From contig JADKJT010000017.1 of NCBI GenBank assembly GCA_016720905.1, forward strand, positions 24,366-88,365: a DNA stretch of 64,000 nucleotides, given 5' to 3'. This document shows positions 5,307 to 44,097 of this stretch, in pieces. Under the pieces are notes generated by a model that saw nothing but the letters and a program-made list of their open reading frames with translations, was not told the origin of the DNA and ran no database searches. Every line of letters begins with the position of its first letter. The first letter of the stretch is position 1. The DNA is from Gemmatimonadaceae bacterium (GTDB taxonomy: Bacteria > Gemmatimonadota > Gemmatimonadetes > Gemmatimonadales > Gemmatimonadaceae). The translations under genes and the position numbers were made by a program.

Positions 5307-5380
<74 letters not shown>

Positions 5381-5466: not shown

Positions 5467-5540
5467 GGCAGGGTAGCTCAGCTGGTCAGAGCGCACGACT
5501 CATAATCGTGAGGTCGGGGGTTCGAGCCCCCCCCCTGCTA
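5467..5540 (+). tRNA. tRNA with CAT anticodon (elongator tRNA-Met, or tRNA-Ile2 if lysidine-modified)
   Basis: 74-nt cloverleaf. Acceptor GGCAGGG/CCCTGCT (G1-U72 wobble), D arm GCTC-AGCTGGTCA-GAGC, anticodon arm CACGA-CTCATAA-TCGTG, T arm GGGGG-TTCGAGC-CCCCC. Met and Ile2 identity cannot be separated by eye. Confidence 0.85.
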
Positions 5541-25707: not shown

Positions 25708-25862
25708 TCAAATTGTGGCCCGGTTGACGGGCGGTCAAGTCGGTGGTGACCAGACGCGTCGGCCGGGGCCGCAGTCACTCATCAAGGGCCGCGCGGTGCG
25801 GTAGCTTTTGCCAGTCCAGTCGCAGGGTCATCAGCTGCAGAACCTTCTTCACGAGGTGGTTC

Positions 25863-28157
25863 GTGGTTCTCGTCCGCAAAGTTGGCACGTTCGCCTGCTG
25901 GTTGCTGGCACTCCCCCTGGTGATCGCGAGCGCCCAGTCGGCGGCCACCAAACGCCCCATGTCATGGATGGATCAGCAACGCATGCGCGCCGCCGGTGCT
26001 CCCGCCGTGTCGCCTGACGGGAAGTGGGTCCTGTATACCGTCACCACGCCCGACTGGAAAGACGCGCGCACGCAATCCGACGTGTATCTCGTCTCGGCGG
26101 AACGGGGATTGCCCAGCACACGCCAGCTCACCTATACGCGTGACAAAAATGAAGCCAGCCCGCGCTGGTTGCCCAACGGTCAGGCGTTTGTATTCGCCTC
26201 CAATCGTGAAGCGCCGGCAGCCCAGGCGGCGCAACAACAGCTGTTCGTGATGCGCCCGGATGGCGGTGAAGCGCGCCGCATCACGGACGCCAAGGACGGT
26301 GTGTCCACCTTTGCCGTGGGTGCGGACGGGAAGTGGCTGGTGTACCGCACGGGCAAGGCTGACGAGGAGCAACTCTACGCCATCGCCATTGCGGAGATCG
26401 CGGCCGGAACGCCGGTGGACTCGCTCAAGCCAACCCAGCTGACCAAACATCCCACGGGCGTGGGGCCGTGGCGCTTTGCGCCCGATGCGAAGCGTGTGTA
26501 CTTCACCACCGCCGACACGGTGGACAAGGACGAGAAGACGCGCGTGGAGAAGAAGTTCACCGTGAACGTGCGCAACGCCGAAGCGCCGGTGTCGTCACTG
26601 TGGGCGGTTGATCTCAGCGGCGGTGCGGCGCGACCCGCTACGCGTCTGACGCGCGACACAACATATGCCGTGACGGGATTCACCGTGTCGCCGGACTCGC
26701 GCTATGTGGGCTTCACCGGGGTGGCCAACAACCGCTACAAGCGCAACATCACCGAGCAGGGCATCTATGGCGATCTGTACCTGCTGGACACGCAGACCAA
26801 CACCGTCGAGCGACTGACGAACAACGCCGAGACCGGCGAAAGCGCCTTGTCCTTCTCGCCCGACTCGAAGTCGATGGCCTTCTCGGCGTCGGACGACATG
26901 ACGGCGTACAACATGAAGAATGCGCGCGTCTACTGGCGCGGGGTGGCCGACAAGGGCGCGGCGTGGCGCAAGCTGGGTGATCTCGATGGCGACGTCAGCG
27001 TCGGATGGTGGTCGCGCGATGCAAAGACGATCTATTTCAACGAAGGATGGCGCGCCACCAACCAGCTGTTCGCGCTGGACGTGGCCAGTGGGAAGGTGCG
27101 TCAACTCACGGATGTGAAGGCCTCGCTGTCGGTCAGTGAGGATGAAGACACGCGCCGCCTGATGGTGAACTACTCCGATCCCGCCACGCCACCGACGATG
27201 TTCACGGTGAACACGCTCGACGATATCACCTCGCGGGCGAAGTGGGTCGCACTCACCGATCCCAATCCGTGGATTCGCGAGCAAGTGGCCCTGGGTGAAG
27301 AGAGTGAAGTCACCTGGAAGTCGAAGGACGGCAAGATGGTGGGCGGTGTGCTGGTCAAGCCGGTGGGGTACGTGCCGGGCAGGAAGTACCCGCTGCTGGT
27401 GGCGATTCACGGCGGGCCGGCCGGGGCAGATCTGCTCAGCTTCAACGGGGGTTATGGCGCGCAGACGTACGCGGGGCAGGGGTGGGTGATCCTGCAGCCC
27501 AACTATCGCGGCTCGACCAACTACGGCGAAGCGCACAAGAACGGCATTGTGGGGAACTACTTCCCGCCCGGCTATGACGACATCATGACGGGTGTCGATG
27601 CCCTCATCGCGCAAGGGATGGTGGACTCCACGAAGATGGGTGTGCTGGGGTGGAGCGCGGGTGGCCACTGGTCCAACTGGATTCTCACGCACACCAACCG
27701 CTTCAAGGGCATCTCGTCGGGCGCTGGTACATCGAACTGGATTTCCATGTATGCGCAGTCCGACGTGCAACGCAATCGCCAGTACTATCTGGGCAACAAG
27801 CTACCCTATGACGACTTCGACGCGTACTGGAAGCAGTCACCCATCAAGTACATCAAGAATGCGAAGACGCCCACCATGATTCATGTGGTGGAGGGCGACC
27901 CGCGCGTGCCGAGTCCCCAGAGTGTGGAGCTGCACATGGCGCTCAAGCGACTCGGGGTGCCCACGGAGCTGTTCATGTATCCGGGCGCGTCGCACGGCAT
28001 TCCCGATGCGCGCAATCGACTGGTGAAGAGCGAAGCCGAGATGGCGTGGATGAACTACTGGGTGCTCGGAACCGGTACCAAGTTCTCGTGGCGAGATGTC
28101 CTGAAGACGCTTGAAGATGCGCCGGCGGAGACCAAGCCGACCATCAGGGGACCGTGA
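25863..28157 (+). CDS. S9 family serine peptidase (prolyl oligopeptidase / acylaminoacyl-peptidase type)
   Basis: N-terminal beta-propeller and C-terminal alpha/beta hydrolase with GWSAGGHWSNW (GxSxGG nucleophile), then later Asp and His (PGASHG). The ORF opens at 25743. The start is uncertain: GTG 25863, preceded by GAGGTGG, gives a signal peptide (VVLVRKVGTFACWLLALPLVIASAQS). Confidence 0.85.
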   Translation: MVLVRKVGTFACWLLALPLVIASAQSAATKRPMSWMDQQRMRAAGAPAVSPDGKWVLYTVTTPDWKDARTQSDVYLVSAERGLPSTRQLTYTRDKNEASPRWLPNGQAFVFASNREAPAAQAAQQQLFVMRPDGGEARRITDAKDGVSTFAVGADGKWLVYRTGKADEEQLYAIAIAEIAAGTPVDSLKPTQLTKHPTGVGPWRFAPDAKRVYFTTADTVDKDEKTRVEKKFTVNVRNAEAPVSSLWAVDLSGGAARPATRLTRDTTYAVTGFTVSPDSRYVGFTGVANNRYKRNITEQGIYGDLYLLDTQTNTVERLTNNAETGESALSFSPDSKSMAFSASDDMTAYNMKNARVYWRGVADKGAAWRKLGDLDGDVSVGWWSRDAKTIYFNEGWRATNQLFALDVASGKVRQLTDVKASLSVSEDEDTRRLMVNYSDPATPPTMFTVNTLDDITSRAKWVALTDPNPWIREQVALGEESEVTWKSKDGKMVGGVLVKPVGYVPGRKYPLLVAIHGGPAGADLLSFNGGYGAQTYAGQGWVILQPNYRGSTNYGEAHKNGIVGNYFPPGYDDIMTGVDALIAQGMVDSTKMGVLGWSAGGHWSNWILTHTNRFKGISSGAGTSNWISMYAQSDVQRNRQYYLGNKLPYDDFDAYWKQSPIKYIKNAKTPTMIHVVEGDPRVPSPQSVELHMALKRLGVPTELFMYPGASHGIPDARNRLVKSEAEMAWMNYWVLGTGTKFSWRDVLKTLEDAPAETKPTIRGP

Positions 28158-29603: not shown

Positions 29604-29812
29604 TGCGGCGATAACCGTATGCGGTAGCTTTGGTTGCGCTACAGGTTGCGCGGTCGGTACCGCGAGCGGTCTGGACAGTACCGGGAGAGGGGTTGGCGTC
29701 GCCGCAACAGCGGTCGTCGGAGCCCTCTACGGTTGAGGTCGGCAAGCCACCACGTCCGGTGGCTGTCGAAGCAGTTGGGATACAGATCCACCCCTCCCTC
29801 GGAGGCGGCGGC

Positions 29813-30754
29813 ATGCAGGTGCTCAGCCCGGCAGCGGAGCGTGATCTCGCGGCGCGTGAACTGGCGACTCTGGCCAGAACCACGCTCGACGAGCATTGGG
29901 CGGTCGCTGCTGTTCCCGCGGAACGACGCGCCTTGTTGCTCGAACGAGCCGAGGCGGCCTCGCTGGTCTCCGGCGACGGACTTGGCGAGCCCATTGCGGA
30001 CGGACTCGCTCTCCTTGGCACGGCCTACGAACTGGCCGCCCTGAGCCAGCTTGAAGCGGCACTGCAACCGGTCGCCAATGCATCGCGCGATCTGGCTCAG
30101 GCGGTTTTGGCACTTGGTGCCGCCCGTGCCTTCCGATGCAGCGCCGCCTTGCGCGCCCCCACTGATGACGGAGAGTCCACGGTGAAGTGGGCCCTTCGTC
30201 TGGGTGCCTTGGCGCTCGTTTCCCACCAGACCGAAAGCTACGTGAAGTGGTGGGAGGTGCGTCGAGGTGTCGCCGACACCGTGCGACGCGTGTCGCTGGG
30301 ACTTGAGCAGGAACCTTGGGAACCCTACGCGCGGGGCACGCTGTGGATTGCCTGGCTGGGGCTTCTGGGAGCGCCCGTCGCCGTTCTCCCCGAGCACGTC
30401 GGTGACGAGTTGCCCGTAGTGTCGGCCACGCGCAGCAGACTGGCGGCCTTCCGAGAGCGTCGCGCCGACCATGAAGTGCCGGGCGAGTCTCAAGTGCTCA
30501 ACGCCACCGCACTTCGTGCCCGAATGACGGAGTTCGCGATCCGTCATCTCGCGGACGCGACCGAGCTGCTGACGGTCGCGGTCCTTCGACGGACGCTGCC
30601 CGACGTCTCCGCAGAGTTCAAGCTGCATCTGAGCGCGGCGCGCTCCGCCCTTGCCGGCGATCACGGGCAGGATCTCCTCCTGGCGTGGTTACAGGCGGCC
30701 GGCGTTACGCTGGCCGGCGGCGTGACCGCGCAGCTCGAACTTCCAGGATTCTAG
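29813..30754 (+). CDS. hypothetical all-helical protein
   Basis: ATG 29813 is preceded by GGAGG with a 7-nt spacer. 313 aa, L/A/E/W-rich helical sequence. Third codon positions (many CTT, CGT, CGA, GGA) are more relaxed than in core genes. No recognised family. Confidence 0.45.
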   Translation: MQVLSPAAERDLAARELATLARTTLDEHWAVAAVPAERRALLLERAEAASLVSGDGLGEPIADGLALLGTAYELAALSQLEAALQPVANASRDLAQAVLALGAARAFRCSAALRAPTDDGESTVKWALRLGALALVSHQTESYVKWWEVRRGVADTVRRVSLGLEQEPWEPYARGTLWIAWLGLLGAPVAVLPEHVGDELPVVSATRSRLAAFRERRADHEVPGESQVLNATALRARMTEFAIRHLADATELLTVAVLRRTLPDVSAEFKLHLSAARSALAGDHGQDLLLAWLQAAGVTLAGGVTAQLELPGF

Positions 30755-31112
30755 TCTTTCCACCGTCGGCGGCCGCGCCGGTGCGCCAAACGCGGTAGAC
30801 GCGTCGTCCGCTGCTTCCAACCGGAAAGGCCACTCGGCCACCCCCGATCGGGGTGATGGTCGCCATGAGCTTGCCCAGAGCCACCCGCTCGGCCAACGGG
30901 CTTTCCACAGCCACGTCGCCACCGTCGATTCGGTACCACTGTGGCGCATTCGCTTCCGTACCGTACTCGTCGCCGGCGCGAACATAGTAGGCATCGTCGC
31001 CACCCCAGAAGGCCGAAAGCACAGTATTCCCCAAAATCGATGCCAGCGGCAGCGATGTGATGGGCGCTGGCTCTAGCGTACCGATTGGTGCGGCGCAGGC
31101 GACTACGTGCAT
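30705..31112 (-). CDS. hypothetical small beta-rich protein
   Basis: ATG 31112 (MHVVACAAPIGTLEP...). The middle part is protein-like (FWGGDDAYYVRAGDEYGTEANAPQWYRIDGGDVAV). The R-rich tail overlaps the convergent ORF by 50 nt, so the 3' end is doubtful. Confidence 0.35.
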   Translation of the reverse strand: MHVVACAAPIGTLEPAPITSLPLASILGNTVLSAFWGGDDAYYVRAGDEYGTEANAPQWYRIDGGDVAVESPLAERVALGKLMATITPIGGGRVAFPVGSSGRRVYRVWRTGAAADGGKTRILEVRAARSRRRPA

Positions 31113-31205
31113 GGTCGATTCCAGGTCAGAATTCGAAACGTGACGATGCGCCGGTTTGATTTGTCGGCGGGCGAGGATGTTATGACGAACGACTCGCTCA
31201 CGCAA

Positions 31206-31440
31206 TACAGCACGAACGCCTAAGTTGTTGACATGATTGTTGATACGTGTTGGAAGTCATGTGGGAAAGTAGGTAACATCAGAATCTGGTTGAAGCTGAG
31301 GATTGCCGTGATGTGGATAAGTGGGGTTAGGTAAGCGGTCCGTTTTGGCAGCGTTGAGACAAACTTGTCCACATTCGCGATTGTCACATTTATTGTATTT
31401 TCTGGATTGCAAACACTACTCGGATGTACGCGTGGCGCTG
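31206..31440. other. ORF-free AT-rich intergenic tract (divergent promoter/leader region or ncRNA locus)
   Basis: No ORF of 60 aa or more in any frame. I counted 85 G+C in 31221-31420 (42.5%). Contains TTGACA (31228-31233) and TTGTCC-N17-ATTTAT (around 31366-31394). Confidence 0.6.
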
Positions 31441-31573
31441 CCCAAGGCGTGATGCGCGGCGGAAGTTCCCGGGAAGGCTGAGGCGCGGAAAACCCGCGCG
31501 CCCCCTATGGCGACTCGACCGACAATCGACCATTCTGCGCTAAACCTTTCGCACCCTTTGGAGAGTTCTCATC

Positions 31574-32515
31574 GTGACCGTCGAACCACGGATCGGATTG
31601 CTTGTTGGGCGGGAGTGGTCATTTCCCCCCGCATTTCTCGAAGCGGTCGCCAAGCGGCAGTCTGGCGTGCCGGCCGACTACATCAAGCTGGATGCGACGC
31701 GGATGGGGCAGCCGGTCCCGTACACGCTGATCATTGATCGCATCTCGCACGAGGTCGGCTTCTATCGCGCCTACCTCAAGCATGCGACGCGAATGGGCGT
31801 GACGGTGGTCAACAATCCGTTCATGTGGTCGGCCGACGACAAGTTCTTCGACGCCACGGTGGCCCTGCAGAACGGCGTGGCGCATCCAAAGACGATGCTC
31901 CTGCCCAACAAGGATTACATCCCGGGGATCTCGCACTCGGAGTCGTTGCGGAACCTCGCCTACCCGCTGGATTGGCGCGGGGTGGCTGAGCACATCGGCT
32001 TCCCCTGCGTGTTGAAGGACGCCCACGGCGGTGGCTGGCGGGATGTGTACGTCTGCCACTCCATGGAGGAGTTGCTCCATCACTACAACACCAGCGGCCT
32101 GCTGACCATGGTGGTGCAGGAGTTTGTGAAGTGGGACTACTATGTGCGTTGCATGGCGTTGGGCCGCGAACACGTGCTGCCGATGCCCTACGATCCCCGT
32201 GAGCGCAAATACATTCCCGATCCTGGCTACTTGCCGAAGGACATCGAAGATCGCTGTGTGGCCGACTCGCTCACGTTGTGCAAGGCGTTGGGCTATGACA
32301 TGAACACGGTCGAGTTCGCGGTGCGTGATGGCATTCCCTATGCCATCGACTTCATGAATCCGGCGCCGGACATGGACATCTACTCGTTGACGCCCAGCTA
32401 CTTCGAGTGGGTGGTGGAGCACATGGCCGACCTGGCGATCAAACTGGCCACGGCGCCGAGACCCGCGGTGGCGCCGGGCGCGCCAATCGGTGAGTCATTG
32501 CCGTCGTCCCGCTAA
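31574..32515 (+). CDS. ATP-grasp domain protein (RimK/glutathione-synthetase-like fold)
   Basis: GTG start preceded by GGAGAG. Motifs GFPCVLKDAHGGGWRDVYV, MVVQEFV and EFAVRDGIPYAIDFMNPAP fit the ATP-grasp nucleotide- and Mg-binding blocks. Confidence 0.7.
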   Translation: MTVEPRIGLLVGREWSFPPAFLEAVAKRQSGVPADYIKLDATRMGQPVPYTLIIDRISHEVGFYRAYLKHATRMGVTVVNNPFMWSADDKFFDATVALQNGVAHPKTMLLPNKDYIPGISHSESLRNLAYPLDWRGVAEHIGFPCVLKDAHGGGWRDVYVCHSMEELLHHYNTSGLLTMVVQEFVKWDYYVRCMALGREHVLPMPYDPRERKYIPDPGYLPKDIEDRCVADSLTLCKALGYDMNTVEFAVRDGIPYAIDFMNPAPDMDIYSLTPSYFEWVVEHMADLAIKLATAPRPAVAPGAPIGESLPSSR

Positions 32516-32528
32516 CGGAGCGGCCGGC

Positions 32529-33881
32529 ATGCTTGCGAGTGCAATTGCGCGCTATCACGACGTCCTGACACAGGGCGACACGGCGGTGGCCTCGGCGGAA
32601 CTCCTCGACCGTCTGCTGCGCAGTGAAGGGCTGTTCTTTGGTGATCGTCCGTTGTGCGGCGTGCTGCGGCCGCGCCTGCTCAGTGTCGGCGAATACCGGC
32701 ACATTGCGCAGGCGTGCGCCCTGGTCGGCTCGGCGTTTGAGGCGGTGCGCCGCGCCGCCATGGAGCAACCGACGCTGCGCGCGCAGTTCGGGTTGACCGC
32801 GTGGGAAGAGCAGTTGATTCACGCCGATCCGGGTTTCGCCGTGGCCAGCCCGACGTCGCGTCTGGATGCGTTCTTTGCCGCGGGTGACGACGGTCTCAAG
32901 TTCACCGAGTTCAACGCCGAGACGCCGGCCGGGGCCGCGTACAACGACGCGTTGTCGCGGGTGATGATGGCCATGCCGGTGATGCACGAGTTCTCGCGCA
33001 GTCACGCGGTGCTGCCCATTCCGGCGGCGCCATCGGTGATTCACGCCCTGCTGGACGCGTACCACGCCTTTCGGGGTGTGCGGGAGCGTCCGACGGTGGT
33101 GATCCTCGATTGGGCGGATGTGCCGACACGCAGCGAGTTCGTGCTGTTCGAGCGGGAGTTTGCCGCCCTGGGCATCGAGGCCTTCATCGGCGATCCGCGC
33201 GACGCCGAGTACTCCGGCGGTACGTTACGCGTTGGCGGACGCCCGGTGACGCTGATCTACAAGCGCGTGCTGATCGATGAGTTGGTGACCCGTGAGGGGT
33301 TGGCATCGCCGGTGGTGCGCGCGGTCCGCGATGGAGCGGTGTGCATGGTCAATCCGTTCCGCTGCAAGCTGCTGCACAAGAAGGCGTCGTTGGCGGTGGT
33401 CAGTGACGAGCGTCAGGCGGCCCTGTTGAGCCCGGCGCAGCGCGCCGCGGTGGCCCGGCACGTGCCGTGGACACGGGTCGTGGAGGAACGGAGCACCTCG
33501 TATCAGGGCAATCAGGTGGACATGCTGCCGTTCATCGCCGATCGTCGCGAGACGATGGTGCTCAAGCCCAACGATGAGTACGGTGGCAAGGGGATCGTGC
33601 TGGGGTGGACCGTGGACGATGCGACCTGGCAGGCGGCCATTCGAACGGCGTTGGGCGAACCGTTCATCGTGCAGGAGCGCGTGGAAGTGCCCAGCGAACC
33701 GTGGCCGGCCTGGGTGGACGGTGGCCTGCATATCAGCGATCGGATGCTGGATACCGCGCCGTTTCTGGTGGACGGGACGGTGATGACGGGATGTCTGACA
33801 CGGATCGCTACTGATCCGTTGCTGAACGTGACAGCCGGTGGCGGCTCGAACGTGCCAACTTTTCTTGTCGAGGAGCGCTGA
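32529..33881 (+). CDS. circularly permuted ATP-grasp type 2 protein (glutathionylspermidine-synthase-like amidoligase)
   Basis: ATG 32529. Motifs LKFTEFNAETPAGAAYND, LIYKRVLIDEL, MVLKPNDEYGGKGIVLGW, FIVQERVEVP. Confidence 0.75.
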   Translation: MLASAIARYHDVLTQGDTAVASAELLDRLLRSEGLFFGDRPLCGVLRPRLLSVGEYRHIAQACALVGSAFEAVRRAAMEQPTLRAQFGLTAWEEQLIHADPGFAVASPTSRLDAFFAAGDDGLKFTEFNAETPAGAAYNDALSRVMMAMPVMHEFSRSHAVLPIPAAPSVIHALLDAYHAFRGVRERPTVVILDWADVPTRSEFVLFEREFAALGIEAFIGDPRDAEYSGGTLRVGGRPVTLIYKRVLIDELVTREGLASPVVRAVRDGAVCMVNPFRCKLLHKKASLAVVSDERQAALLSPAQRAAVARHVPWTRVVEERSTSYQGNQVDMLPFIADRRETMVLKPNDEYGGKGIVLGWTVDDATWQAAIRTALGEPFIVQERVEVPSEPWPAWVDGGLHISDRMLDTAPFLVDGTVMTGCLTRIATDPLLNVTAGGGSNVPTFLVEER

Positions 33882-34705
33882 TGTCAGCGTTGTTACGCCC
33901 GGTGATCGGGTTGACCACACAAACCCTGCATTCGATCGACGGCATTCCGCCGGCGTTACCCGCATCGTGGGTCATGAACCAGCGGTATTTCCTGGCGGCC
34001 ACGATGGTCGGCGCCGTGCCGTGGATGATTCCGTTGCTGGACGACGACCTGAACACGTTGCGTGAGATCTACGAGCGTCTGGATGGCATTCTCATTCCGG
34101 GCGGGGTCGACGTGAGCCCGCTGGAATACGGGGAAGCGGTACGCCCCGAATGCGGGAATCTCGATCCGGCGCGCGACCGGGTGGAATTGCAGCTTACGCG
34201 GTGGGCGATGGAGGATGGGAAGCCGCTGCTGGGTCTGTGCCGTGGCCTCCAGATCATCAACGTCGCCTCAGGGGGCACCCTGTGGCAGGACCTGGCCATG
34301 CAAAACGGCACATTTCAGAAGCACGACTACTTCCCAACCGCCGGGTACGAGCGCGATCATCTGGCACACGAGGTGGACGTCGTTGCCGGTACGAAACTGC
34401 GGCGGTATCTCGAGTCGTCGCGGGTGTCGGTCAACAGCATGCATCATCAGGGCATCAAGCAACTCGGAGGGGGGCTGGTGGCGTCGGCCATCGCGCCGGA
34501 CGGGTTGATCGAGGCGGTGGAAGGGGGAACCGACGCGTTTGTGGTGGGCGTGCAGTGGCACCCGGAGGTGTTCGAGATGGCGGATCCGCACATTCGACAC
34601 CTGTTTGGCGGGTTCATCCGGGCATCCATCGGCTGGGCGCAGGCGCATACTCCGACACGCGTTCCTGAGGGTGGCAGAGCGGGATTCACAGTCAGCACGA
34701 CCTAA
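33881..34705 (+). CDS. class I glutamine amidotransferase-like hydrolase, peptidase C26 (gamma-glutamyl-GABA hydrolase family)
   Basis: TGATG overlap with the upstream gene. Nucleophile elbow LLGLCRGLQIINVASGG, then HHQGIK and VGVQWHPE (Cys-His-Glu triad). Confidence 0.85.
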   Translation: MSALLRPVIGLTTQTLHSIDGIPPALPASWVMNQRYFLAATMVGAVPWMIPLLDDDLNTLREIYERLDGILIPGGVDVSPLEYGEAVRPECGNLDPARDRVELQLTRWAMEDGKPLLGLCRGLQIINVASGGTLWQDLAMQNGTFQKHDYFPTAGYERDHLAHEVDVVAGTKLRRYLESSRVSVNSMHHQGIKQLGGGLVASAIAPDGLIEAVEGGTDAFVVGVQWHPEVFEMADPHIRHLFGGFIRASIGWAQAHTPTRVPEGGRAGFTVSTT

Positions 34706-34720
34706 GCCGACGAGGAAGCA

Positions 34721-35944
34721 ATGCGGGCGCCCAGTCTGACAGTCGGCATCGAAGAGGAGTACCAGATCATCGATCCGGTGACGCGTGATCTTACGCCCGG
34801 ATTCGACGCGCTGGTCACCAGCGAGCACGCCGAGCTGGCCGATGTCAAAGCGGAATTGCACCAGTGCCAGGTGGAGATCGGGACCAAGGTCTGTCATTCG
34901 ATCGCCGAGTTGCGGCAGGAGTTGACGTCGCTGCGCGGCCTGGTGATCAAGGCGGCGGCGCAACACGGACTCACCATCGCGTCGGCCGGGACGCATCCGT
35001 TCTCGAACTGGATGAACCAGGAAATGACGCCCAAGGAGCGCTACCTGGGCGTCAAGGCGGAGCTGCAGGATCTGGCGCATCGGCTGCTGATCTTCGGGAC
35101 GCACGTACATGTCGGCATCGAAGACAATGAGTTCCGCATAGACTGTCTGAATGCGGCGCGCTACGTGCTGCCGCATATTCTGTGTCTGTCCACCAGTTCA
35201 CCGTTCTGGTTTGGCCGCAACACCGGACTGCATTCGTATCGCAGCATCGTGTTCAAGAACTTTCCGCGCACCGGTGTGCCGCGCATTTTGCAGGGGTGGA
35301 GCGACTACTCCGATCTGGTCGACACGCTGGTGAAGACGCGCAGCATCCCCGACGGATCGAAAATCTGGTGGGACGTGCGGCCGCATCACGTGTATCCGAC
35401 GCTCGAGTTCCGCATCTGCGATGTGAACACGCGCATTGACGAAGCCATTTGTGTCGCCGCCATTCTGCAGGCCGTGGTGGCCAAGATGTGGAAGTTGCGC
35501 CGGGACAACCTCACGTTCCGCGTGTACGCGCAGGATCTCATCGAAGAGAACAAGTGGCGCGCGGTCCGGTGGGGATTGAGCGGCAAGCTCATCGACTTCG
35601 GCAAGAAGACCGAAATGCCCGCGCCGGTGCTCATCCGCGAACTCATCGAGTGGTTCCTGGACGATGTGCTGGATGAATTGGGGACGCGCAAGGAAGTCGA
35701 GTATGCGTTCAAGATTCTTGAGGAGGGCTCAAGTGCCCAACGGCAGTTGGCCACGTATGCCCGTACGGGCGACCTGCGCGCGGTGGTGGATCAACTGATC
35801 CGCGAGACGGCCGAAGGGGTGTGCGAGCCGACACTGGGTCCTCCGCTGGAGCGGTCGGATCGGGTGGACGCGTCGTCGTCGGCGACGCCAACCGGCGTCA
35901 ACGCAATCCCGTCGGGATCCGCCCGCGGCCAGTCGATGCCCTAG
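34721..35944 (+). CDS. carboxylate-amine ligase, glutamate-cysteine ligase family 2 (YbdK/GCS2)
   Basis: TVGIEEEYQIIDP, FGTHVHVGIED, SSPFWFG, WWDVRPHHVYPTLEFRICD. Confidence 0.85.
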   Translation: MRAPSLTVGIEEEYQIIDPVTRDLTPGFDALVTSEHAELADVKAELHQCQVEIGTKVCHSIAELRQELTSLRGLVIKAAAQHGLTIASAGTHPFSNWMNQEMTPKERYLGVKAELQDLAHRLLIFGTHVHVGIEDNEFRIDCLNAARYVLPHILCLSTSSPFWFGRNTGLHSYRSIVFKNFPRTGVPRILQGWSDYSDLVDTLVKTRSIPDGSKIWWDVRPHHVYPTLEFRICDVNTRIDEAICVAAILQAVVAKMWKLRRDNLTFRVYAQDLIEENKWRAVRWGLSGKLIDFGKKTEMPAPVLIRELIEWFLDDVLDELGTRKEVEYAFKILEEGSSAQRQLATYARTGDLRAVVDQLIRETAEGVCEPTLGPPLERSDRVDASSSATPTGVNAIPSGSARGQSMP

Positions 35945-36652
35945 GTGTCGTCGGCCGATGCGCGCACCGTGAACGACCGCACCAACGCGTCGCGGCAGCA
36001 GGCCAGCTGGATTGCCAATGCCGCCGCGTGGACCACGGCCGTACGGGGCGGACAGATTGCCAGTCGTCGGAGCGGCACCGACGCGGCCATCGTCGATGCG
36101 TGCCAGTCGGAAGCCGGCATGCGCATCCTTGATGTCGGATGTGGCGAGGGCTGGCTGGCGCGGGCGCTTTCGGCGCAAGGCGCGCAGGTGACCGGGGTCG
36201 ATGCCAGCGAACCGCTGATAGCGGCGGCGCGCACGGCCGGCGGCGCTACGTACGAAGTGGCGGACTATGCGTTGCTGAGTGCGCAACGGACGGTGGTCCC
36301 GGGTCCTTTCGATGTGATCGTCTGCAATTTCGCGTTGCTCGACCGGGATTTGGTTCCGCTCTTGCGCGCCTTATCCAAGCGATTGGCCTTATCGGGGCGT
36401 TTGCTCATCCAGACGGTGCATCCATTTATTGCTGCGGGCCCGGATGGCTATGTGGATGGATGGCGCGAGGAGCGATTCTCGGCGTTTGGTGACGGGTTCT
36501 CGGCGCCGATGCCCTGGTACTTTCGCACCTTCGAGAGCTGGCAGCGCACGCTGTGGGAGAGCGGGCTGACGGTGTACCGGTTACGGGAACCGCGCAATGC
36601 CGAGGGGGCGGTGCTGTCGTTGTTGTTCGAGTGTCAGGCGGCATCCGGCTGA
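35945..36652 (+). CDS. class I SAM-dependent methyltransferase
   Basis: GTG start immediately after the upstream stop. Motif I RILDVGCGEGWLARAL, then DVIVCNFAL and GRLLIQTVHP. Confidence 0.8.
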   Translation: MSSADARTVNDRTNASRQQASWIANAAAWTTAVRGGQIASRRSGTDAAIVDACQSEAGMRILDVGCGEGWLARALSAQGAQVTGVDASEPLIAAARTAGGATYEVADYALLSAQRTVVPGPFDVIVCNFALLDRDLVPLLRALSKRLALSGRLLIQTVHPFIAAGPDGYVDGWREERFSAFGDGFSAPMPWYFRTFESWQRTLWESGLTVYRLREPRNAEGAVLSLLFECQAASG

Positions 36653-36702
36653 GCGGCCGCGAAACGCGCACCGCAGCGGTCCGCCACGCTTGCCGGATCG
36701 CG

Positions 36703-36719
36703 CACATTTGACGAATGTG
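36703..36719. promoter_or_regulatory. inverted repeat CACATT-N5-AATGTG upstream of the SusC-like gene (possible operator)
   Basis: Perfect 6-bp arms about 70 nt upstream of ATG 36791. Short enough to arise by chance. Confidence 0.25.
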
Positions 36720-36790
36720 TTGCCCAACTGAGTCGGATAAGACGACCGTCGATCGCGTCGGTTGATCGTTCCACCTTCCGGAGGTCAGGC

Positions 36791-39700
36791 ATGCCCTGGC
36801 AACACATTCGACGCGGAATCGCCCTCGCGGTTCTTGCAGCGCTGCCGGTGGTCGCGACGGCGCAAGTCGCCACGGGAACCGTGCGCGGGCGCGTCACCGA
36901 CGCCGTCACCGGCCGCGCCATCGTGGATGCGCAAGTGCAGGTGACGGGCACGCGTATCGGGGCGGTGACCGGCACCACCGGCGACTATCTCTTGACCCAG
37001 GTGCCGATCGGATCGCGAATCATCAGCGTGCGTCGATTGGGCTTTCAGCCTGCCACGCAGGCCGTGACGATTGTCGCGGACGGATCGGTCACGGCGAATT
37101 TCGCGTTACGCGAGAGTGCCGTGAACCTCAGCGAGGTGGTGGTTACCGGTTCGGCGGCGCCGACGGAGAAACGCAAGATCGGCACGAGTGTGGCATCGGT
37201 CGACTCCACGATGATCGCACGGGCGGTGGCCGTCACAGTGGATCAGGCGCTGCAGGGCAAGGTACCCGGCGCGCAGATCACGCAGAATTCCGGCGGCCCG
37301 GGTGGCGGTGGCATCTCGGTGCGACTGCGGGGCACCAATTCCTTCATCTCCGGCTCCGATCCGCTGTACATCGTGGACGGCGTCATCATCGACAACAGCT
37401 CGGCGCAGCTGGCCGATCTGGGTGGCCGGTCAAATCCGCAGAACCGACTGGCCGATCTCAACCCGTCGGATATCGAGCGCATCGAGATCATCCGGGGCGC
37501 CGCCGCGGCCGCGCTGTACGGGTCCCGCGCCAACAACGGCGTGGTGCAGATCTTCACCAAGCGCGGCAGCATCGGCCGCCCGCGATTCTCGCTGTCGTCG
37601 CGGTATGCGTCCAACGAGTTGCGCGAGCAGCAGCCGTTCAACTTCTATCCGTACGACGTGAGCGGGCTGCCCATCGCGCGCTACAACTATCAGGACGACA
37701 TTTTCCGGCGGTCCAACACACTCGAGCAGAACCTGACCGTCGAGGGCGGCAACGACCAGACGCGCTATTTCATGAGCGCCAACTCGGCGGCCGACGACGG
37801 CATTCTCAAGTCCACCCGGTCGAATCGACAGGGGGCGCGCATCAATCTGCAGCAGCAACTGGCGTCGAAGGTCATCGCCAATGTCACCGCCAATTATATC
37901 ACCACGCGCAACGATGTGCAGGCGTTTGGCGAGCAGAACGACTACGGCATCATGGGTTCGCTGTTCTTCGCGCCCACCAGCGTGAACTTCCGCCCGGTCA
38001 ACGGCATCTACCCGCTGCCGCCGGCGCTGGGCACGAATCCGCTGCTGGCCATCGATCGCATCAAGAATCCGCAGACCATCAATCGCTTCATCGGATCGAC
38101 CAAGCTCACCTGGACGCCGCGTCCCGCGTTGTTGCTGGACTACACGCTGGGCATAGACGCCTACAACTTTGCCCAGAGCCAGTTCATTCCGCGCAACGCC
38201 GTGCTGGGCACGGCGCTGCTGTCCACCGGTCGCTCGCAGTCGGTGATGTCGAACAACCGCGTGGTGAATCAGGATGGCGTGGGCACGTACTCCTGGAAGG
38301 TTGGCGACCGCTTCGACCTGCGCACCACGGGCGGCTTCAACTACACGCAACAGACGGTGAACACCACCAGTGCCGTGGCCAACGGCCTGGCGCCGGTGGG
38401 CGAACTGGTGGGAGCGGGCTCGGTGTTCTCCGCCGGCCAGACCTCGGTGGAATTGCGCACGCTGGGATTCTACGGCCAGCAGGAAGTGGCCTGGAACAAC
38501 CGGTTGTTCCTGACCGGCGCGGTGCGGTACGACGCGTCCAGCACGTTCGCTCCGTCGGAACGCTGGCAGGTGTTTCCCAAGTTCTCGCTCTCGTACGTTG
38601 CCGTGGAGAATCGGCAGGGTGCCTTCAACAGCCTGCGGGTGCGCAGCGCCGTGGGTTGGGCGGGCAGCCAGCCGGGCATCGTGAATGCGTATTCGCAGTT
38701 CGTGGGCTTCACGCAACTGCCGTTTGCCGGACGACCGGGATTTGTGAACGACGTGACGTACGGCAACCCGACGCTGCGCAACGAGCGCGCGCGCGAAGTG
38801 GAGGTGGGTGCCGACGCCAGTTTCCTGTCGGGCAAGGTCAGCGCGGAAGCGACCTACTACAACCGCCTGGTGTCGGATCTGCTGTTCTTCCGCCCACTGG
38901 CCACGAGCACGGGATTCTCGCGCCAATTCTACCCGATCGGCTCGATGTCCAACAAGGGACTGGAGTTGCTTATCCATACGGTGAATGCCGACTCGAAGCG
39001 TTTCAAGTGGGAGTCGACCGTCACCTATTCGACCAACAAGAACCTGGTGGAATCGTTGGCGATTCAGGACTTCCAGTCGGCCGGCGGGTATCCCAATCGC
39101 ATTCGGACGGGCGAGCCGGTAGGCGTGTTCTACGGCTCGTATGCGGCGCGCAACTGCGTGACAGGGGCCTTGCTGCTGGACTCGCTGGGGCGCTATCGCC
39201 GCAGCAACCAGACGGCGGACATGGGCTCCCAGGCGCAAGCGCGCGTGCTCAGTGGCGGCACCTGCAACGACTCGCTCAACAAGGTGATCGGTGATCCGAA
39301 TCCGAAATTCCTCGGATCCTTGCTGAACGAGTTCACGCTGGGCGGCAAACTGCGCTTCCGCGTGCTGCTGGACGGTGTCTTCGGCAACGACATCATGAAT
39401 CTTTCCACGCGCGCCCAGAACGCCGGTGTGGCCAGCAACTCCAAGGAGTACGAGCGCGAGTTGCTGCCCTACGGCGATCCGCGCAAGCTGCCGCCAACAT
39501 TCAACTCCCGAACGCAAGGGATCTTCGAGTACTGGATCGAGGATGGCAGCTTCGTGAAACTGCGCGAACTGTCGGCCAGCTATTCACTCAACACGCCCGC
39601 GGTACGTCGCGTGTTCCGGGATGGCATCGACCTGACGGTGTCCGGTCGCAACCTCGCCGTGTGGACCAAATACTCCGGCTACGATCCCGAGATCAACCTG

Positions 39701-39820
39701 TTCGGCACGAATGCCGGCGGACTCGGGTCGGCGCAAACGACATCCGCCGATCGCGGATTCGATTTCGGTGGCTATCCGATCCCACGGGTGTGGTCGGTCA
39801 GCGCCCGGTTCACCTACTGA
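36791..39820 (+). CDS. SusC/RagA-family TonB-dependent outer-membrane receptor
   Basis: 1009 aa. Signal peptide, CarboxypepD_reg domain (GTVRGRVTDAVTGRAIVDAQVQV), Plug (IERIEIIRGAAAAALYGSRANNGVVQIFTKRG), a long barrel, and a terminal aromatic residue (SARFTY). Confidence 0.9.
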   Translation: MPWQHIRRGIALAVLAALPVVATAQVATGTVRGRVTDAVTGRAIVDAQVQVTGTRIGAVTGTTGDYLLTQVPIGSRIISVRRLGFQPATQAVTIVADGSVTANFALRESAVNLSEVVVTGSAAPTEKRKIGTSVASVDSTMIARAVAVTVDQALQGKVPGAQITQNSGGPGGGGISVRLRGTNSFISGSDPLYIVDGVIIDNSSAQLADLGGRSNPQNRLADLNPSDIERIEIIRGAAAAALYGSRANNGVVQIFTKRGSIGRPRFSLSSRYASNELREQQPFNFYPYDVSGLPIARYNYQDDIFRRSNTLEQNLTVEGGNDQTRYFMSANSAADDGILKSTRSNRQGARINLQQQLASKVIANVTANYITTRNDVQAFGEQNDYGIMGSLFFAPTSVNFRPVNGIYPLPPALGTNPLLAIDRIKNPQTINRFIGSTKLTWTPRPALLLDYTLGIDAYNFAQSQFIPRNAVLGTALLSTGRSQSVMSNNRVVNQDGVGTYSWKVGDRFDLRTTGGFNYTQQTVNTTSAVANGLAPVGELVGAGSVFSAGQTSVELRTLGFYGQQEVAWNNRLFLTGAVRYDASSTFAPSERWQVFPKFSLSYVAVENRQGAFNSLRVRSAVGWAGSQPGIVNAYSQFVGFTQLPFAGRPGFVNDVTYGNPTLRNERAREVEVGADASFLSGKVSAEATYYNRLVSDLLFFRPLATSTGFSRQFYPIGSMSNKGLELLIHTVNADSKRFKWESTVTYSTNKNLVESLAIQDFQSAGGYPNRIRTGEPVGVFYGSYAARNCVTGALLLDSLGRYRRSNQTADMGSQAQARVLSGGTCNDSLNKVIGDPNPKFLGSLLNEFTLGGKLRFRVLLDGVFGNDIMNLSTRAQNAGVASNSKEYERELLPYGDPRKLPPTFNSRTQGIFEYWIEDGSFVKLRELSASYSLNTPAVRRVFRDGIDLTVSGRNLAVWTKYSGYDPEINLFGTNAGGLGSAQTTSADRGFDFGGYPIPRVWSVSARFTY

Positions 39821-39836
39821 TCGCGGAGACCAACTC

Positions 39837-41210
39837 ATGCGCATGATCAAGCAGTGCGCGGTGGTCATCACCGCCGCGTCATTCACTATGGTCGGGGCGT
39901 GCAGCCTCGACCTGCAGAATCCCAACGCCCCCACGGAAGCGCAGGTCACCACCAGCGCGGACGGGGTGATCGCGCTGGCCACCGGCCTGCAGTCGCGGTT
40001 TGCCACGTCGTATTTCAACTACGCCTACGCGGCCGGGCTGGTCACCGATGAGTTTTCGGCCACCAGCGCGGCGCTCATCTCCATTTCCGATGCGGAGCAG
40101 GGCTCGGTGCCGTCGGGGACGGGCATTGCCGACAACGTGTTCAATTCGGTGTATCGCACCGTGCGCACGGCTGACGATCTGCTCAACGGCGCCGATGCGC
40201 TGTCGGCGCAGTTTGACGCCGGCACGCGAGCCGGATTGCGCGCGCTGGCCCTCACACTGAAGGCCGAGGCGCTGGGCGAGGCCCTGCAATCGTACCAGAC
40301 GATTCCGATCGCCACGTTTGGCGTCACGGCGCCGACGTACGTGTCGCGGTCGGTGGCCCTGCCGTACGTGCGCGGGCTGCTCGACTCGGCGGCCACGATC
40401 ATTGCGGCGGCCCCGCCGAGCTCGTTCTTCACCACCAGCATCCTGACGCCGGGTGTCAGTCTGTCCAATGTCATTCAGCTCTATCGGGCGCGGTATGCCC
40501 GCATGGCGAATGACGATGCGGCGGCGCTGGCGGCGGCGAATCTGGTGGCGCGTACGGGAACGGCGGCGCTGTCGGTACTGACGTTTCCCGCGCCAACGGT
40601 CAACCCGTTTGCCAATGTCACGGGCGGCACCAACGGCATTGCCCCGCGCCGCAACTGGCGGCTGAGCATGACCGGCGGTGATCAACGGTTTGCGTACTTC
40701 GTGACGCCATCGACGGCCCTGACGGGTCGCATCGGCGCGCCGTTGGACAACTGGAACCGGTACGCCAGCACGCAGGCGCCGCTGCCGCTGTATTTGCCCG
40801 ACGAGGCGTTGCTCATCAAGGCCGAGGCGTTGGCGCGTACGAACCAGTTGTCTGCGGCGCAGGCAGTGATCGACTCGGTGCGCACCGATTGCACCGGCGG
40901 GCGCGGACTGGACGATCCGAAGGCCTGTCTGACGCCCCTGACTGGCGCGCTGACGCAATCGCAGCTGCTGGATGAAATCTATCTGCAGCGTCGCTACGAG
41001 TTGTTCAGCAGCGGACTGCGGTGGGAAGACGCCCGGCGTCGTGGGGCGATTCGTGGCCCCGCGTCGTCACCCAACATTCCGCTGGACGGTCAGCGCTGCT
41101 GGCTGCCGTACTCGATTGGTGATCGCAACGCCAACCCGAACGCGACTTTTGCGGTGCTGCCCGATCCGGCAGAGCCGACCGCGTTTCCCGCCACCTGTGC
41201 GACGCCGTGA
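39837..41210 (+). CDS. SusD/RagB-family outer-membrane lipoprotein
   Basis: ATG 39837, lipoprotein signal (AASFTMVGACS). Helical TPR-like body. Family-typical C-terminal block (EIYLQRRYELFSSGLRWEDARR). Lies immediately after the SusC-like gene. Confidence 0.8.
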   Translation: MRMIKQCAVVITAASFTMVGACSLDLQNPNAPTEAQVTTSADGVIALATGLQSRFATSYFNYAYAAGLVTDEFSATSAALISISDAEQGSVPSGTGIADNVFNSVYRTVRTADDLLNGADALSAQFDAGTRAGLRALALTLKAEALGEALQSYQTIPIATFGVTAPTYVSRSVALPYVRGLLDSAATIIAAAPPSSFFTTSILTPGVSLSNVIQLYRARYARMANDDAAALAAANLVARTGTAALSVLTFPAPTVNPFANVTGGTNGIAPRRNWRLSMTGGDQRFAYFVTPSTALTGRIGAPLDNWNRYASTQAPLPLYLPDEALLIKAEALARTNQLSAAQAVIDSVRTDCTGGRGLDDPKACLTPLTGALTQSQLLDEIYLQRRYELFSSGLRWEDARRRGAIRGPASSPNIPLDGQRCWLPYSIGDRNANPNATFAVLPDPAEPTAFPATCATP

Positions 41211-41221
41211 GGACGCGACTG

Positions 41222-42034
41222 ATGACCCATACTTTCTCTCCGTCGGAGACGTCCCGCATGTTGCCTCGCCTCTCGCGTCGTCTGACCATGGCTGCGCTCG
41301 GCGGCGTGTCGGTGTTTGCCGTCGCCTGCGGGACCACCGAGGCGCCGGATCCCCTGTCGCCGTCCGGTGCACAAGGCCGGATTCGTTTCGTCAATCTGAT
41401 CACTGACACCACGCGCGGACGCGTCAACGCGATTCTCGAATCGGTGCCGTTCGGGGTGAATCTCACGTACACGGTGAGCACTCCGGCGGCGCTGCCGTCG
41501 CCGGCGACGGCCACCTACTCCCCGATTCTCACCGGCAGTCGCACACTGGTCCTCAAGCGCACGATCGACACGAACACGGTCGTGAGCACGTTCGCGGTCA
41601 CCATTACCGAGGGACAGGATCGCACGGTGTATGCCGTGGGCGGGACGGGGGGATCGGCGATTGCGTCGTTCGTCACCACCGATGACAACACGTTGCCGAC
41701 GGTGGGCACGCAGGCGAAGGTCCGGGTGGTGCACCTGAGCCCTACCCCGGGTGCGGTCGATCTCTTCGTGACAGCGACCGGCGCCGACCTGGCGGCCGCC
41801 ACGCCGGTGCTGACGAACATCGCCAATCAATCGGCGTCGGCGTATCTGAACCTCAACGCCGGGACCTATCAGGTGCGGGCTGTTCCCGCTGGAACCGCCG
41901 CGGGCTCTCGTGCGGCGAGTGTCATCATTACCGCCAGTGTCGCCCTGAATGGCGGGACGGTTCGCACGATCGTGGCGGCCGACAACAACGTTGGTGGTGC
42001 ACCACTGCGTGCGTTTGTGCTCACGGACCGCTAG
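41222..42034 (+). CDS. DUF4397 domain lipoprotein
   Basis: Lipoprotein signal (GGVSVFAVACG). Two DUF4397-type repeats (RIRFVNLITD..., KVRVVHLSPTPGAVDLFVTATG...YLNLNAGTYQVRAVPAG). Confidence 0.7.
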   Translation: MTHTFSPSETSRMLPRLSRRLTMAALGGVSVFAVACGTTEAPDPLSPSGAQGRIRFVNLITDTTRGRVNAILESVPFGVNLTYTVSTPAALPSPATATYSPILTGSRTLVLKRTIDTNTVVSTFAVTITEGQDRTVYAVGGTGGSAIASFVTTDDNTLPTVGTQAKVRVVHLSPTPGAVDLFVTATGADLAAATPVLTNIANQSASAYLNLNAGTYQVRAVPAGTAAGSRAASVIITASVALNGGTVRTIVAADNNVGGAPLRAFVLTDR

Positions 42035-42122: not shown

Positions 42123-42896
42123 ATGTCCAATCGCACCATCGTGATCACGGGCGCCAGCGGCGGCATTGGTGCCGCGTTGGCGGAGCAGCTGGCCCCGACT
42201 GGCTGTGCGCTCGTGCTGGTGGCTCGACGCGCTGACACTCTTGCGGCGGTCGCCGCGCGGTGCGGTGCCAATGTGATGACAATCACCGCCGATGTGACAT
42301 CCCGTGCCACTGTGCGCGCGATCGTGGCCGACACCCTGGCCCGATTCGGCCGCATCGACGTCTGGGTGAACAACGTGGGGCAGGGCATTTCGCGGATGCC
42401 CAGTGAACTCACCGGCGACGATGTCGACGAGATGATGCGCATCAATGTGAAGTCCGCGCTGTACGGCATGCAGGAGACACTGGACCACTTTCGCGAACGT
42501 GGGACGGGTCACGTGATCAACGTGTCGTCGATGCTGGGGCGCATGCCACTGGCGCTGCAGCGGTCGGCCTACAGCGGTGCGAAGCACTTCCTGAATGCGC
42601 TCACGGCGAATTTCCGCGCGGAGATTCAGCAGACGCATCCGGACATTCAGTTCTCGCTGGTGTCGCCGGGCGTGGTGCGGACCGATTTCGGCTTGAATGC
42701 CGTGCATGGCGGGATCGACTCGCGCGCCTTGCCGTATTCGCAGAGCGCCGAGGAAGTGGCGGCGGTGATTGCACAGGTCATCGAGTCGCGCGCCCCGGAC
42801 GTCTATACGCGAGCTGGGGCACGTGACCACGTGGCCGCGCACTTCGCCGTGATCGGGGTGGACCCGACGTTGCCCCCCGGAAATTCCCCTACGTAG
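42123..42896 (+). CDS. short-chain dehydrogenase/reductase (SDR)
   Basis: TGASGGIGAALA cofactor motif, NNVG, and the S...YSGAK catalytic motif. Confidence 0.9.
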   Translation: MSNRTIVITGASGGIGAALAEQLAPTGCALVLVARRADTLAAVAARCGANVMTITADVTSRATVRAIVADTLARFGRIDVWVNNVGQGISRMPSELTGDDVDEMMRINVKSALYGMQETLDHFRERGTGHVINVSSMLGRMPLALQRSAYSGAKHFLNALTANFRAEIQQTHPDIQFSLVSPGVVRTDFGLNAVHGGIDSRALPYSQSAEEVAAVIAQVIESRAPDVYTRAGARDHVAAHFAVIGVDPTLPPGNSPT

Positions 42897-43013
42897 TGCT
42901 GGGCACAAGTACGGATCGTGCGACACCGGTACAGCCGCTAGCCTCCGGAGAACAGCATCTGCGTGGCATGGTTTGACGCCACGCGCCTTGCCACCATCTC
43001 CGGACGAGTGTCC

Positions 43014-44093: not shown

Positions 44094-44097
44094 TACG

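Follow-up and report, generated by a model that had tools for sequence, protein, structure and literature searches.

A conserved module of amide-forming ligases with interchangeable hydrolases at a Gemmatimonadaceae locus, and a methyltransferase that travels apart from it

What might five adjacent genes build together, and do all five belong to one pathway? The locus in question lies at positions 31574-36652 of a 64,000-nt stretch of Gemmatimonadaceae bacterium contig JADKJT010000017.1 (assembly GCA_016720905.1), and it encodes members of three ligase families (ATP-grasp, permuted ATP-grasp, and GCS2, of the ATP-grasp and GCS/glutamine-synthetase-like superfamilies), all of which use ATP to activate a carboxylate for coupling to an amine, together with an amidohydrolase and a methyltransferase. 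An earlier reading of the DNA (hereafter the original prediction) had proposed a five-gene operon as a candidate pathway for a peptide-like or gamma-glutamyl metabolite. Here, we call the whole 64-kb stretch the window and give all positions in its numbering, and we find that genes 1-4 are truly conserved together as a module in Gemmatimonadota, Chloroflexota, Planctomycetota, and Rubricoccaceae, while gene 5 lies in a variable region as an accessory gene outside the module. The five genes, with protein lengths in amino acids (aa), are:

31574-32515, plus strand: gene 1, divergent classical ATP-grasp ligase, 313 aa
32529-33881, plus strand: gene 2, type-2 circularly permuted ATP-grasp ligase, 450 aa
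33881-34705, plus strand: gene 3, Peptidase_C26 (C26), a gamma-glutamyl amidohydrolase of class-I GATase fold, 274 aa
34721-35944, plus strand: gene 4, carboxylate-amine ligase of the GCS2/YbdK family, 407 aa
35945-36652, plus strand: gene 5, class I S-adenosylmethionine-dependent methyltransferase, start at 35945 or 35969

Direct reading of the junctions bore out the description of five co-directional, nearly end-to-end open reading frames (ORFs): genes 1 and 2 are separated by +13 nt, genes 2 and 3 by -1 nt (TGATG, the start of gene 3 overlapping the stop of gene 2 by 1 nt), and genes 3 and 4 by +15 nt, while a value of 0 nt for the final junction requires the methyltransferase to start at GTG 35945. 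On the same contig, public annotation begins this gene at GTG 35969 (P0391, 227 aa), which makes the junction +24 nt, and owing to this later start the 235-aa version has no exact public match. Shine-Dalgarno motifs (GGAG/GAGG) lie upstream of each of genes 1-4, and none was seen at either candidate methyltransferase start (35945, 35969). Profile searches with Pfam and NCBIfam found the predicted families, with gene 1 below Pfam thresholds, and together with fold models and motif alignment they showed all five of the original domain assignments to be correct. The closest homologs of the window's proteins carry the names Gemmatimonas or Gemmatimonadaceae.

The evidence that genes 1-4 belong together comes from their distribution. 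A first scan, of one genome per GTDB species, found relatives in at least 585 genomes, and the best 80 loci were analyzed; these belong to Gemmatimonadota, Chloroflexota (Anaerolineae, Ardenticatenaceae, Ktedonobacteraceae, and Chloroflexia), Planctomycetota (Fimbriiglobus and Gemmata), and Rubricoccaceae. Components were counted by tblastn of the window proteins against these 80 loci, with only those loci evaluable that had enough flanking DNA:

Gene 1 directly upstream of gene 2: 64/64 evaluable loci
GCS2 present: 45/58 evaluable loci
C26 present: 36/58 evaluable loci
GCS2 and C26 both present: 35/58 evaluable loci
239-aa PF00756 alpha/beta-hydrolase (E2) present: 40/57 evaluable loci
Second PF00756 esterase (E1) present: 18/49 evaluable loci
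Methyltransferase present: 0/58 evaluable loci

The order of the genes is gene 1-gene 2-C26-GCS2 in the Gemmatimonas clade and E2-gene 1-gene 2-GCS2-C26 in most others, and such shuffled order with kept membership argues for functional linkage. The set recurs in hundreds of genomes, which puts the arrangement well outside what chance would give. A fortuitous juxtaposition of unrelated genes is refuted for genes 1-4, which occur together in hundreds of species, in four phyla and in shuffled order; this explanation, to which we assign a negligible probability, applies to the methyltransferase alone, which is patchy among near-identical relatives.

How far does the module reach? A second scan, seeded with distant family members, yielded loci in which gene 2 is 33-45% identical; gene 1 is adjacent in 21 of 28 of them and GCS2 in 11 of 13, the usual order is GCS2-gene 1-gene 2, and esterases occur in 4 of 7. 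In the deepest branch (gene 2 identity 30-32%, i.e., <33%), neither gene 1 nor GCS2 was found at the loci, an M20 peptidase lies immediately upstream of the permuted ligase (L098, 6832-9341), and in one case (L095, 101-5963) the permuted ligase sits beside Liv-type ATP-binding cassette (ABC) amino-acid transporter genes. A hydrolase is thus almost always attached, be it C26, PF00756, or, in the deepest branch, M20. The ligase complement varies as well: in four loci (L051, 1420-2679; L071; L023; L063), a third ligase of ~419 aa with ATP-grasp_4 and ATPgrasp_N domains follows gene 2, and in Anaerolineae and related loci it sometimes stands in place of GCS2. One variant locus (L005, 6457-10138) consists of C26, a PF00756 esterase, a gene 1 homolog (69% identical), and a major facilitator superfamily (MFS) transporter whose start overlaps the ligase stop, i.e., with translational coupling, and has no permuted ATP-grasp or GCS2 nearby. 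The earlier remark that no transporter was evident is therefore not universal for the module. Six loci, from Chloroflexota or other lineages, have an S9 peptidase next to the module, and among the close loci no further neighbor was conserved beyond local synteny. The permuted-ligase family as a whole comprises 3628 clusters at 50% identity with E<=1e-3, of which 562 have E<=1e-30, so that the module is widespread, at the level of species genomes and of clusters alike, in phyla that are abundant and poorly studied in soil and water.

The co-conservation check thus upheld part of the original prediction, in that genes 1-4 recur together across lineages, and contradicted the rest: the methyltransferase is absent from all 58 evaluable loci and from all 7 distant ones, and is missing even from relatives up to 93% identical. 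It is lacking in L086 and L088/L089 (in both of which gene 1 is 89-93% identical), the 5.3-Mb contig L087, and L006, and at the first three of these GCS2 is followed by HmuY and a TonB receptor or by other genes. It is present in a small subclade (L090, L092, and L093), where its identity between these contigs is 64-76%, compared with 85-96% for the ligases. Gene 5 matches Methyltransf_23/25/11 at 1e-11 to 1e-14 and is closest to an uncharacterized Pseudomonas putida protein (PDB 3e8s, 1.8e-52), and its homologs are stand-alone genes in Pseudomonas and Pirellulales. Membership of the methyltransferase in the pathway was rejected on this distribution; it is a recent, lineage-restricted neighbor that at most decorates the product in the subclade, and it should not steer product prediction. 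Experimentally, the target narrows from five genes to a three-ligase core with interchangeable hydrolases. In PADLOC searches, genes 1-4 gave no defense-system matches, and gene 5 gave only a generic methyltransferase-domain match (mad2).

The window itself has no PF00756 esterase in the module, though this is the commonest extra component elsewhere. The window ORF at 23072-24397 (PF00756) was considered as a displaced esterase and rejected, as it is 29% identical to E1 and is not an E2 ortholog. This paralog (minus strand) and an S9 prolyl-oligopeptidase-family peptidase (25743-28157, plus strand; 3.4 kb upstream of the module) lie 3-8 kb upstream, and both are syntenic in clade relatives.

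What, then, are the individual enzymes? Gene 1 is the most divergent: no Pfam model matched it above threshold, even at E<=10, and its matches to the rimK_fam model (5e-10, 39.2 bits vs a cutoff of 143.4), to the LysX model (23.9 bits vs 275.6), to biotin-carboxylase and Ddl, and to PDB sequences are all weak. It is an ATP-grasp enzyme nonetheless, as these weak rimK_fam and PDB matches and the AlphaFold/Foldseek results agree. Its AlphaFold model (predicted local distance difference test score, pLDDT, 82; predicted template-modeling score, pTM, 0.82) has Ddl, RimK, and LysX/ArgX as best Foldseek matches (template-modeling score, TM, 0.6-0.74; 15-19% identity), and K148, the G152-154 loop, Q182-E183, E247, D259, and N262, which are conserved ATP-grasp residues, are invariant. 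Gene 1 hence represents an unmodeled ATP-grasp family that is a constant companion of the permuted ligase.

These structural neighbors raise the possibility, also noted in the original prediction, that the substrate is a protein or peptide: gene 1 would add amino acids to a C-terminus or side chain in the style of RimK on S6 or LysX/ArgX on LysW, with assistance from gene 2 and removal of the tag by C26 or the esterases. RimK and LysX/ArgX, which act on protein C-termini, are indeed among the nearest structural neighbors of gene 1, and rimK_fam and LysX are its weak sequence matches. However, the rimK_fam score is far under its cutoff and Ddl, a small-molecule ligase, matches gene 1 equally well, while GCS2 and the glutathione-synthetase-like gene 2 belong to small-molecule enzyme families. 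Across lineages, the module and its flanks also yielded no small ORF that is conserved, no carrier-like gene, and no gene for a substrate resembling S6 or LysW. Clustering of 2184 small ORFs around the module gave no conserved candidate for a precursor peptide or carrier protein, the clusters being shadows of conserved genes or clade-restricted intergenic DNA, which agrees with the earlier observation that no precursor-peptide ORF is evident. Because of this result and the MFS-coupled variant, we favor a small-molecule substrate over a protein and regard tagging as unlikely.

Gene 2 is a type-2 permuted ATP-grasp ligase: it passes PF14403 (CP_ATPgrasp_2; 45.6 bits vs a cutoff of 32, E 6e-12), remains below the type-1 model PF04174 (21.7 bits vs 23.1), and has public homologs named "circularly permuted type 2 ATP-grasp protein" (NCBI). 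By sequence it matches PDB 3n6x, a putative glutathionylspermidine synthase, at 1e-7. Its AlphaFold2 model gave eukaryotic glutathione and homoglutathione synthetases as first Foldseek matches, then the ligase Cp1B and 3n6x, and, further down, Escherichia coli YjfC/YgiC, GspS, and trypanothione synthetase; the match to eukaryotic-type glutathione synthetases has a TM of about 0.5 at 13-17% identity in a moderate-confidence model, and that to GspS has E 5e-5 and a TM of 0.4. The 450-aa protein has no second domain and no CHAP amidase domain as in GspS, and neither gene 1 nor gene 2 has a GshB sequence-family match, GshB appearing as a weak fold match only. Among these relatives, Cp1B joins epoxysuccinate and an amino acid during the biosynthesis of E-64, and YgiC/YjfC are peptide-spermidine ligases according to the reference list of the same paper (PMC12568646). 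An annotated type-2 permuted ATP-grasp of P. putida, PP_2688, is ~16-fold up on nitrate vs ammonium; it adjoins a proteasome-beta-like gene, and as its neighborhood differs, this observation may not transfer to the module (PMC8050072).

The original prediction held that the usual partners of permuted ATP-grasp genes are absent here, which conflates two types. The type-1 system (PF04174), with alpha-E and transglutaminase partners, has the superfamily in common with gene 2, and no alpha-E or transglutaminase neighbors occur in the window or at any close locus; gene 2 is of type 2 and is not linked to them. The usual partners are in fact not absent, since GCS2, an alpha/beta-hydrolase, and M20 are the partners found across the type-2 family. 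Amidoligase clusters of the PF14403 type have reportedly been predicted since 2009, when Iyer, Abhiman, Burroughs, and Aravind are said to have described such neighborhoods by comparative genomics. The Pfam note for PF14403, which cites this study, reportedly names as partners a GCS2-like ligase, an alpha/beta-hydrolase peptidase, a GAT-II-like amidohydrolase, and M20, with a predicted role in small-peptide synthesis. GCS2, PF00756 hydrolases, and M20 were recovered independently here and match these partners, whereas the amidohydrolase differs, being of C26 class-I GATase fold rather than the class-II type described there. Two further differences are that a classical ATP-grasp without a Pfam model is an obligatory partner, and that the subclade of the window no longer has the esterase and has acquired the methyltransferase. 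With these local peculiarities, the window locus is a member of a computationally predicted, experimentally uncharacterized kind, less novel and less "five-gene" than was first proposed, and a solid lead rather than a surprise.

Gene 3 matches Peptidase_C26 (PF07722) at 8e-60, and its Cys-His-Glu triad is intact: Cys120 in LCRG corresponds to the ICRG motif, and His227/Glu229 in QWHPE to the QWHPE motif, in alignments with PuuD (6vtv) and the SpuA-like 7d4r. It remains under the cutoff of the PuuD model NF008471 (119.8 bits vs 266). Gene 4 matches GCS2 (PF04107) at 3e-54 and scores above the cutoff of an NCBIfam equivalog, PRK13515 "carboxylate-amine ligase" (532 bits vs 371); it is under the cutoff of every glutamate-cysteine ligase model (best gshA-named model NF010043, 346 bits vs 409), and its solved relatives are YbdK structures only (1r8g/1tt4).

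As in the Puu/Spu pathway, a C26 hydrolase with matching catalytic motifs is here paired with an ATP-dependent carboxylate-amine ligase. Could the module therefore serve catabolism or salvage, with an imported amine or peptide gamma-glutamylated or ligated at the cost of ATP in a Puu/Ipu-like manner and, after processing, set free by C26, esterase, S9, or M20 hydrolases? Gene 3 is closest to PuuD/SpuA-type gamma-glutamyl-polyamine hydrolases, the hydrolases are the most variable and most numerous partners, the deep-branch gene of L095 adjoins an amino-acid importer, and S9 peptidases recur nearby, including in the window. In contrast to Puu/Spu, the ligase here is GCS2 and not the glutamine-synthetase-type PuuA, and no glutamine-synthetase-like or oxidoreductase genes occur in the module: PuuB and PuuC have no counterpart, and no oxidase, dehydrogenase, or aminotransferase, which would be expected between gamma-glutamylation and deglutamylation, accompanies it. 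Three distinct ATP-consuming ligases would also be hard to justify, and we consider a catabolic role improbable.

Our preferred reading is that genes 1-4 form a module, independent of nonribosomal peptide synthetases (NRPSs), that assembles and trims a small gamma-glutamyl-type peptide or amide metabolite, a proposal that we hold to be slightly better than an even bet. The enzyme families, the intact catalytic motifs, and the co-conservation are observed, whereas substrates, product, and order of reactions are proposed here on the model of the ligases for glutathione, glutathionylspermidine, and peptide-spermidine conjugates. Synthesis would take place in the cytoplasm. First, the GCS2 ligase would make a gamma-glutamyl or similar carboxylate-amine amide. 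Second, genes 1 and 2, which are always neighbors and probably function together, would each add one more amino acid or amine via acyl-phosphate intermediates. Third, C26 would hydrolyze a gamma-glutamyl amide, either for turnover or for removal of a transient gamma-glutamyl group, and in other lineages PF00756 esterases or the M20 peptidase appear to fill this hydrolase role. The proposal of a dedicated pathway that forms amides without NRPSs is supported, and the view that its product is not assignable to a known pathway also stood, with the gshA, PuuD, RimK, and LysX equivalogs all below cutoff.

Two groups of known systems bear on this reading. Synthesis of glutathione, glutathionylspermidine, and trypanothione uses equal ligase superfamilies (GCS-type, ATP-grasp, and permuted ATP-grasp) plus a product amidase, and exactly these enzymes are the best fold matches of gene 2; the differences are that there is no equivalog-level match, that the amidase here is C26, and that gene 2 is without the CHAP domain of GspS. 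Parallels may be drawn between GCS2 and GshA/EgtA, between the permuted grasp and glutathione synthetase/GspS, between C26 or M20 and gamma-glutamyl or Cys-Gly peptidases, and between PF00756 and thioesterases or siderophore esterases, all of which are suggestive analogies at the family level. The dapdiamide (DdaF/DdaG), E-64 (Cp1B/Cp1D), and tabtoxin (TabS) systems likewise form amides stepwise with discrete ligases and without NRPSs, and Cp1B ranks among the five best fold matches of gene 2. Enzymes that make a warhead or precursor form part of those clusters, whose distribution is narrow, whereas the module is cross-phylum and carries hydrolases instead.

Several observations weigh against our proposal. 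No gshA, gshB, PuuD, RimK, or LysX equivalog model was passed by any of the genes, no member of the module family has a known substrate or product, and a literature search found no characterized member of the module. The gene 2 model is of moderate confidence (pLDDT 67), its C-terminal 100 residues are poor, and its fold matches reach a TM of only ~0.5. C26 was found in 0 of 7 distant loci and is hence not core. Finally, the many hydrolases (C26, two esterases, and nearby S9) fit degradation or recycling equally well. Specifically glutathione-like chemistry is to be given a far lower probability than the general proposal. In its most ambitious form, the gene 1-gene 2-GCS2 core, with or without C26 or an esterase, would be the route to an undiscovered low-molecular-weight gamma-glutamyl peptide (perhaps a thiol or a peptide-polyamine conjugate) serving as a glutathione-like redox or protective cofactor of Gemmatimonadota, Chloroflexota, and Planctomycetota, with expression in the Gemmatimonas clade possibly tied to DnaA via the upstream array of boxes described below; we rate this as doubtful. 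If true, such a thiol or peptide-amine cofactor would fill a gap concerning these phyla's substitute for glutathione, mycothiol, and bacillithiol.

Where does the methyltransferase belong, if not to the module? Immediately downstream of it lie the following genes (SDR, short-chain dehydrogenase/reductase):

36791-39820, plus strand: SusC-like TonB-dependent receptor
to 41210, plus strand: SusD-like
41207-42034, plus strand: DUF4397
42123-42896, plus strand: SDR

By synteny mapping, a ~6-kb block of methyltransferase-SusC-SusD-DUF4397 separates GCS2 from the SDR and the HmuY and TonB-dependent transporter (TBDT) genes, while in close relatives GCS2 is directly followed by the SDR or by HmuY+TBDT (42963-46302 in the window). 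In each of L090, L092, and L093, GCS2 and the methyltransferase are followed by SusC, and SusD-DUF4397-SDR comes after as in the window wherever the contig reaches far enough; the methyltransferase more likely belongs with this SusC/SusD block. The block (35945-42034) occurs whole or not at all in relatives with ligases 85-96% identical, behaving as an indel hotspot, and relatives carry the SDR, HmuY+TBDT, or a CarboxypepD_reg protein at that spot downstream of GCS2. The region is rich in outer-membrane uptake genes (TonB-dependent receptors at 36791-39820 and 44098-46302), and large paralogous proteins with CarboxypepD_reg domains surround the locus, e.g., at 20130-23053 (minus strand) and 46771-48756 (plus strand).

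Such neighbors invite a metallophore- or siderophore-like explanation, in which the ligases build a carboxylate-amine chelator, the PF00756 esterases free the metal, and TonB receptors import the complex. The nearest solved relatives of E1 are indeed IroE-like, fusarinine, enterobactin, and bacillibactin esterases (9e-13 to 4e-6), and in the Gemmatimonas clade HmuY and a TonB receptor or SusC/SusD follow GCS2 directly on the same strand. However, this receptor adjacency is limited to one clade and variable even there, E1 occurs in a minority of evaluable loci with similarity at the family level, PF00756 spans many unrelated esterases, and no exporter or Fur-type signal was seen. We therefore think a chelator very improbable.

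How might the module be expressed? Upstream of gene 1 lie:

31115-31573, strand not assigned: divergent intergenic regulatory region, the "leader" of the original prediction
31561-31564: Shine-Dalgarno GGAG of gene 1

This had been described as a 460-bp leader with an AT-rich tract, of which the tract is real (31371-31420 holds the most AT-rich 30-mers of the whole window, at 73% AT), and the leader is in fact an intergenic region in common with a divergent gene, hence for the most part not transcribed as a leader. Its size is 368 nt if measured to ORF 30705-31205 and ~459 nt if measured to the homology-supported ATG of that gene at 31114. The divergent gene (30705-31114, minus strand, 134 aa) has no family match and overlaps convergently, by ~50 nt, with a gene at 29630-30754 (plus strand, ~313 aa); both are conserved and keep this position before the module, by synteny, in the whole Gemmatimonas clade. 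For the ~313-aa protein there is a weak match to the PADLOC candidate-defense model PDC-M23B (8.9e-10).

Alignment of this region with 14 Gemmatimonas-clade loci revealed conserved islands in otherwise divergent DNA. One of them, YATGGCG-N17-CATTCT (in the window TGGCGA at 31508-31513, a 17-nt spacer, and CATTCT at 31531-31536), is found in almost every clade relative, ~40-65 nt before the start of gene 1, and is likely a candidate promoter of the ligase operon with a 5' untranslated region of ~30 nt. This proposal rests on conservation because a sigma-70 consensus scan shows none: the promoter and terminator consensus scans returned no promoter and a single terminator-like site, counts that do not exceed chance. 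A minus-strand element ahead of the divergent gene, TTGCGT-17-TAACAT, may be read as its candidate promoter-like element.

The same region holds four DnaA-box-like nonamers (nTnTCCACA) at ~31237, ~31259, 31312-31320 (the perfect box TGTGGATAA), and 31365-31373 (TTGTCCACA), with spacings of ~22, 52, and 53 bp, and the AT-rich tract directly follows them. Positions and spacing are conserved in the clade. At a background of 0.12 boxes per kb in 174 sequences (1.9 Mb), three or more boxes within 300 bp were found in 12 sequences, all of the Gemmatimonas clade and always at this spot. The array could be an oriC, a DnaA-regulated or titrating site, or the operator of another regulator. No replication genes lie near it in the window or in clade relatives. 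The cumulative GC-skew minimum of the window, near 24-30 kb, was considered as support for an oriC and rejected: plus-strand genes left of the array have positive skew and local skew follows gene strand, so that skew gives an oriC no support because it tracks transcription. The array is absent from other module-carrying lineages, and we regard it as belonging to this chromosomal site in one clade, not to the module. A riboswitch or other known RNA in the leader was likewise rejected, Rfam giving nothing relevant at the gathering threshold in the whole window or at E<=5 in 30900-31700. The sole gathering-threshold Rfam matches in the window are two tRNA genes, at 5307-5380 and 5467-5540.

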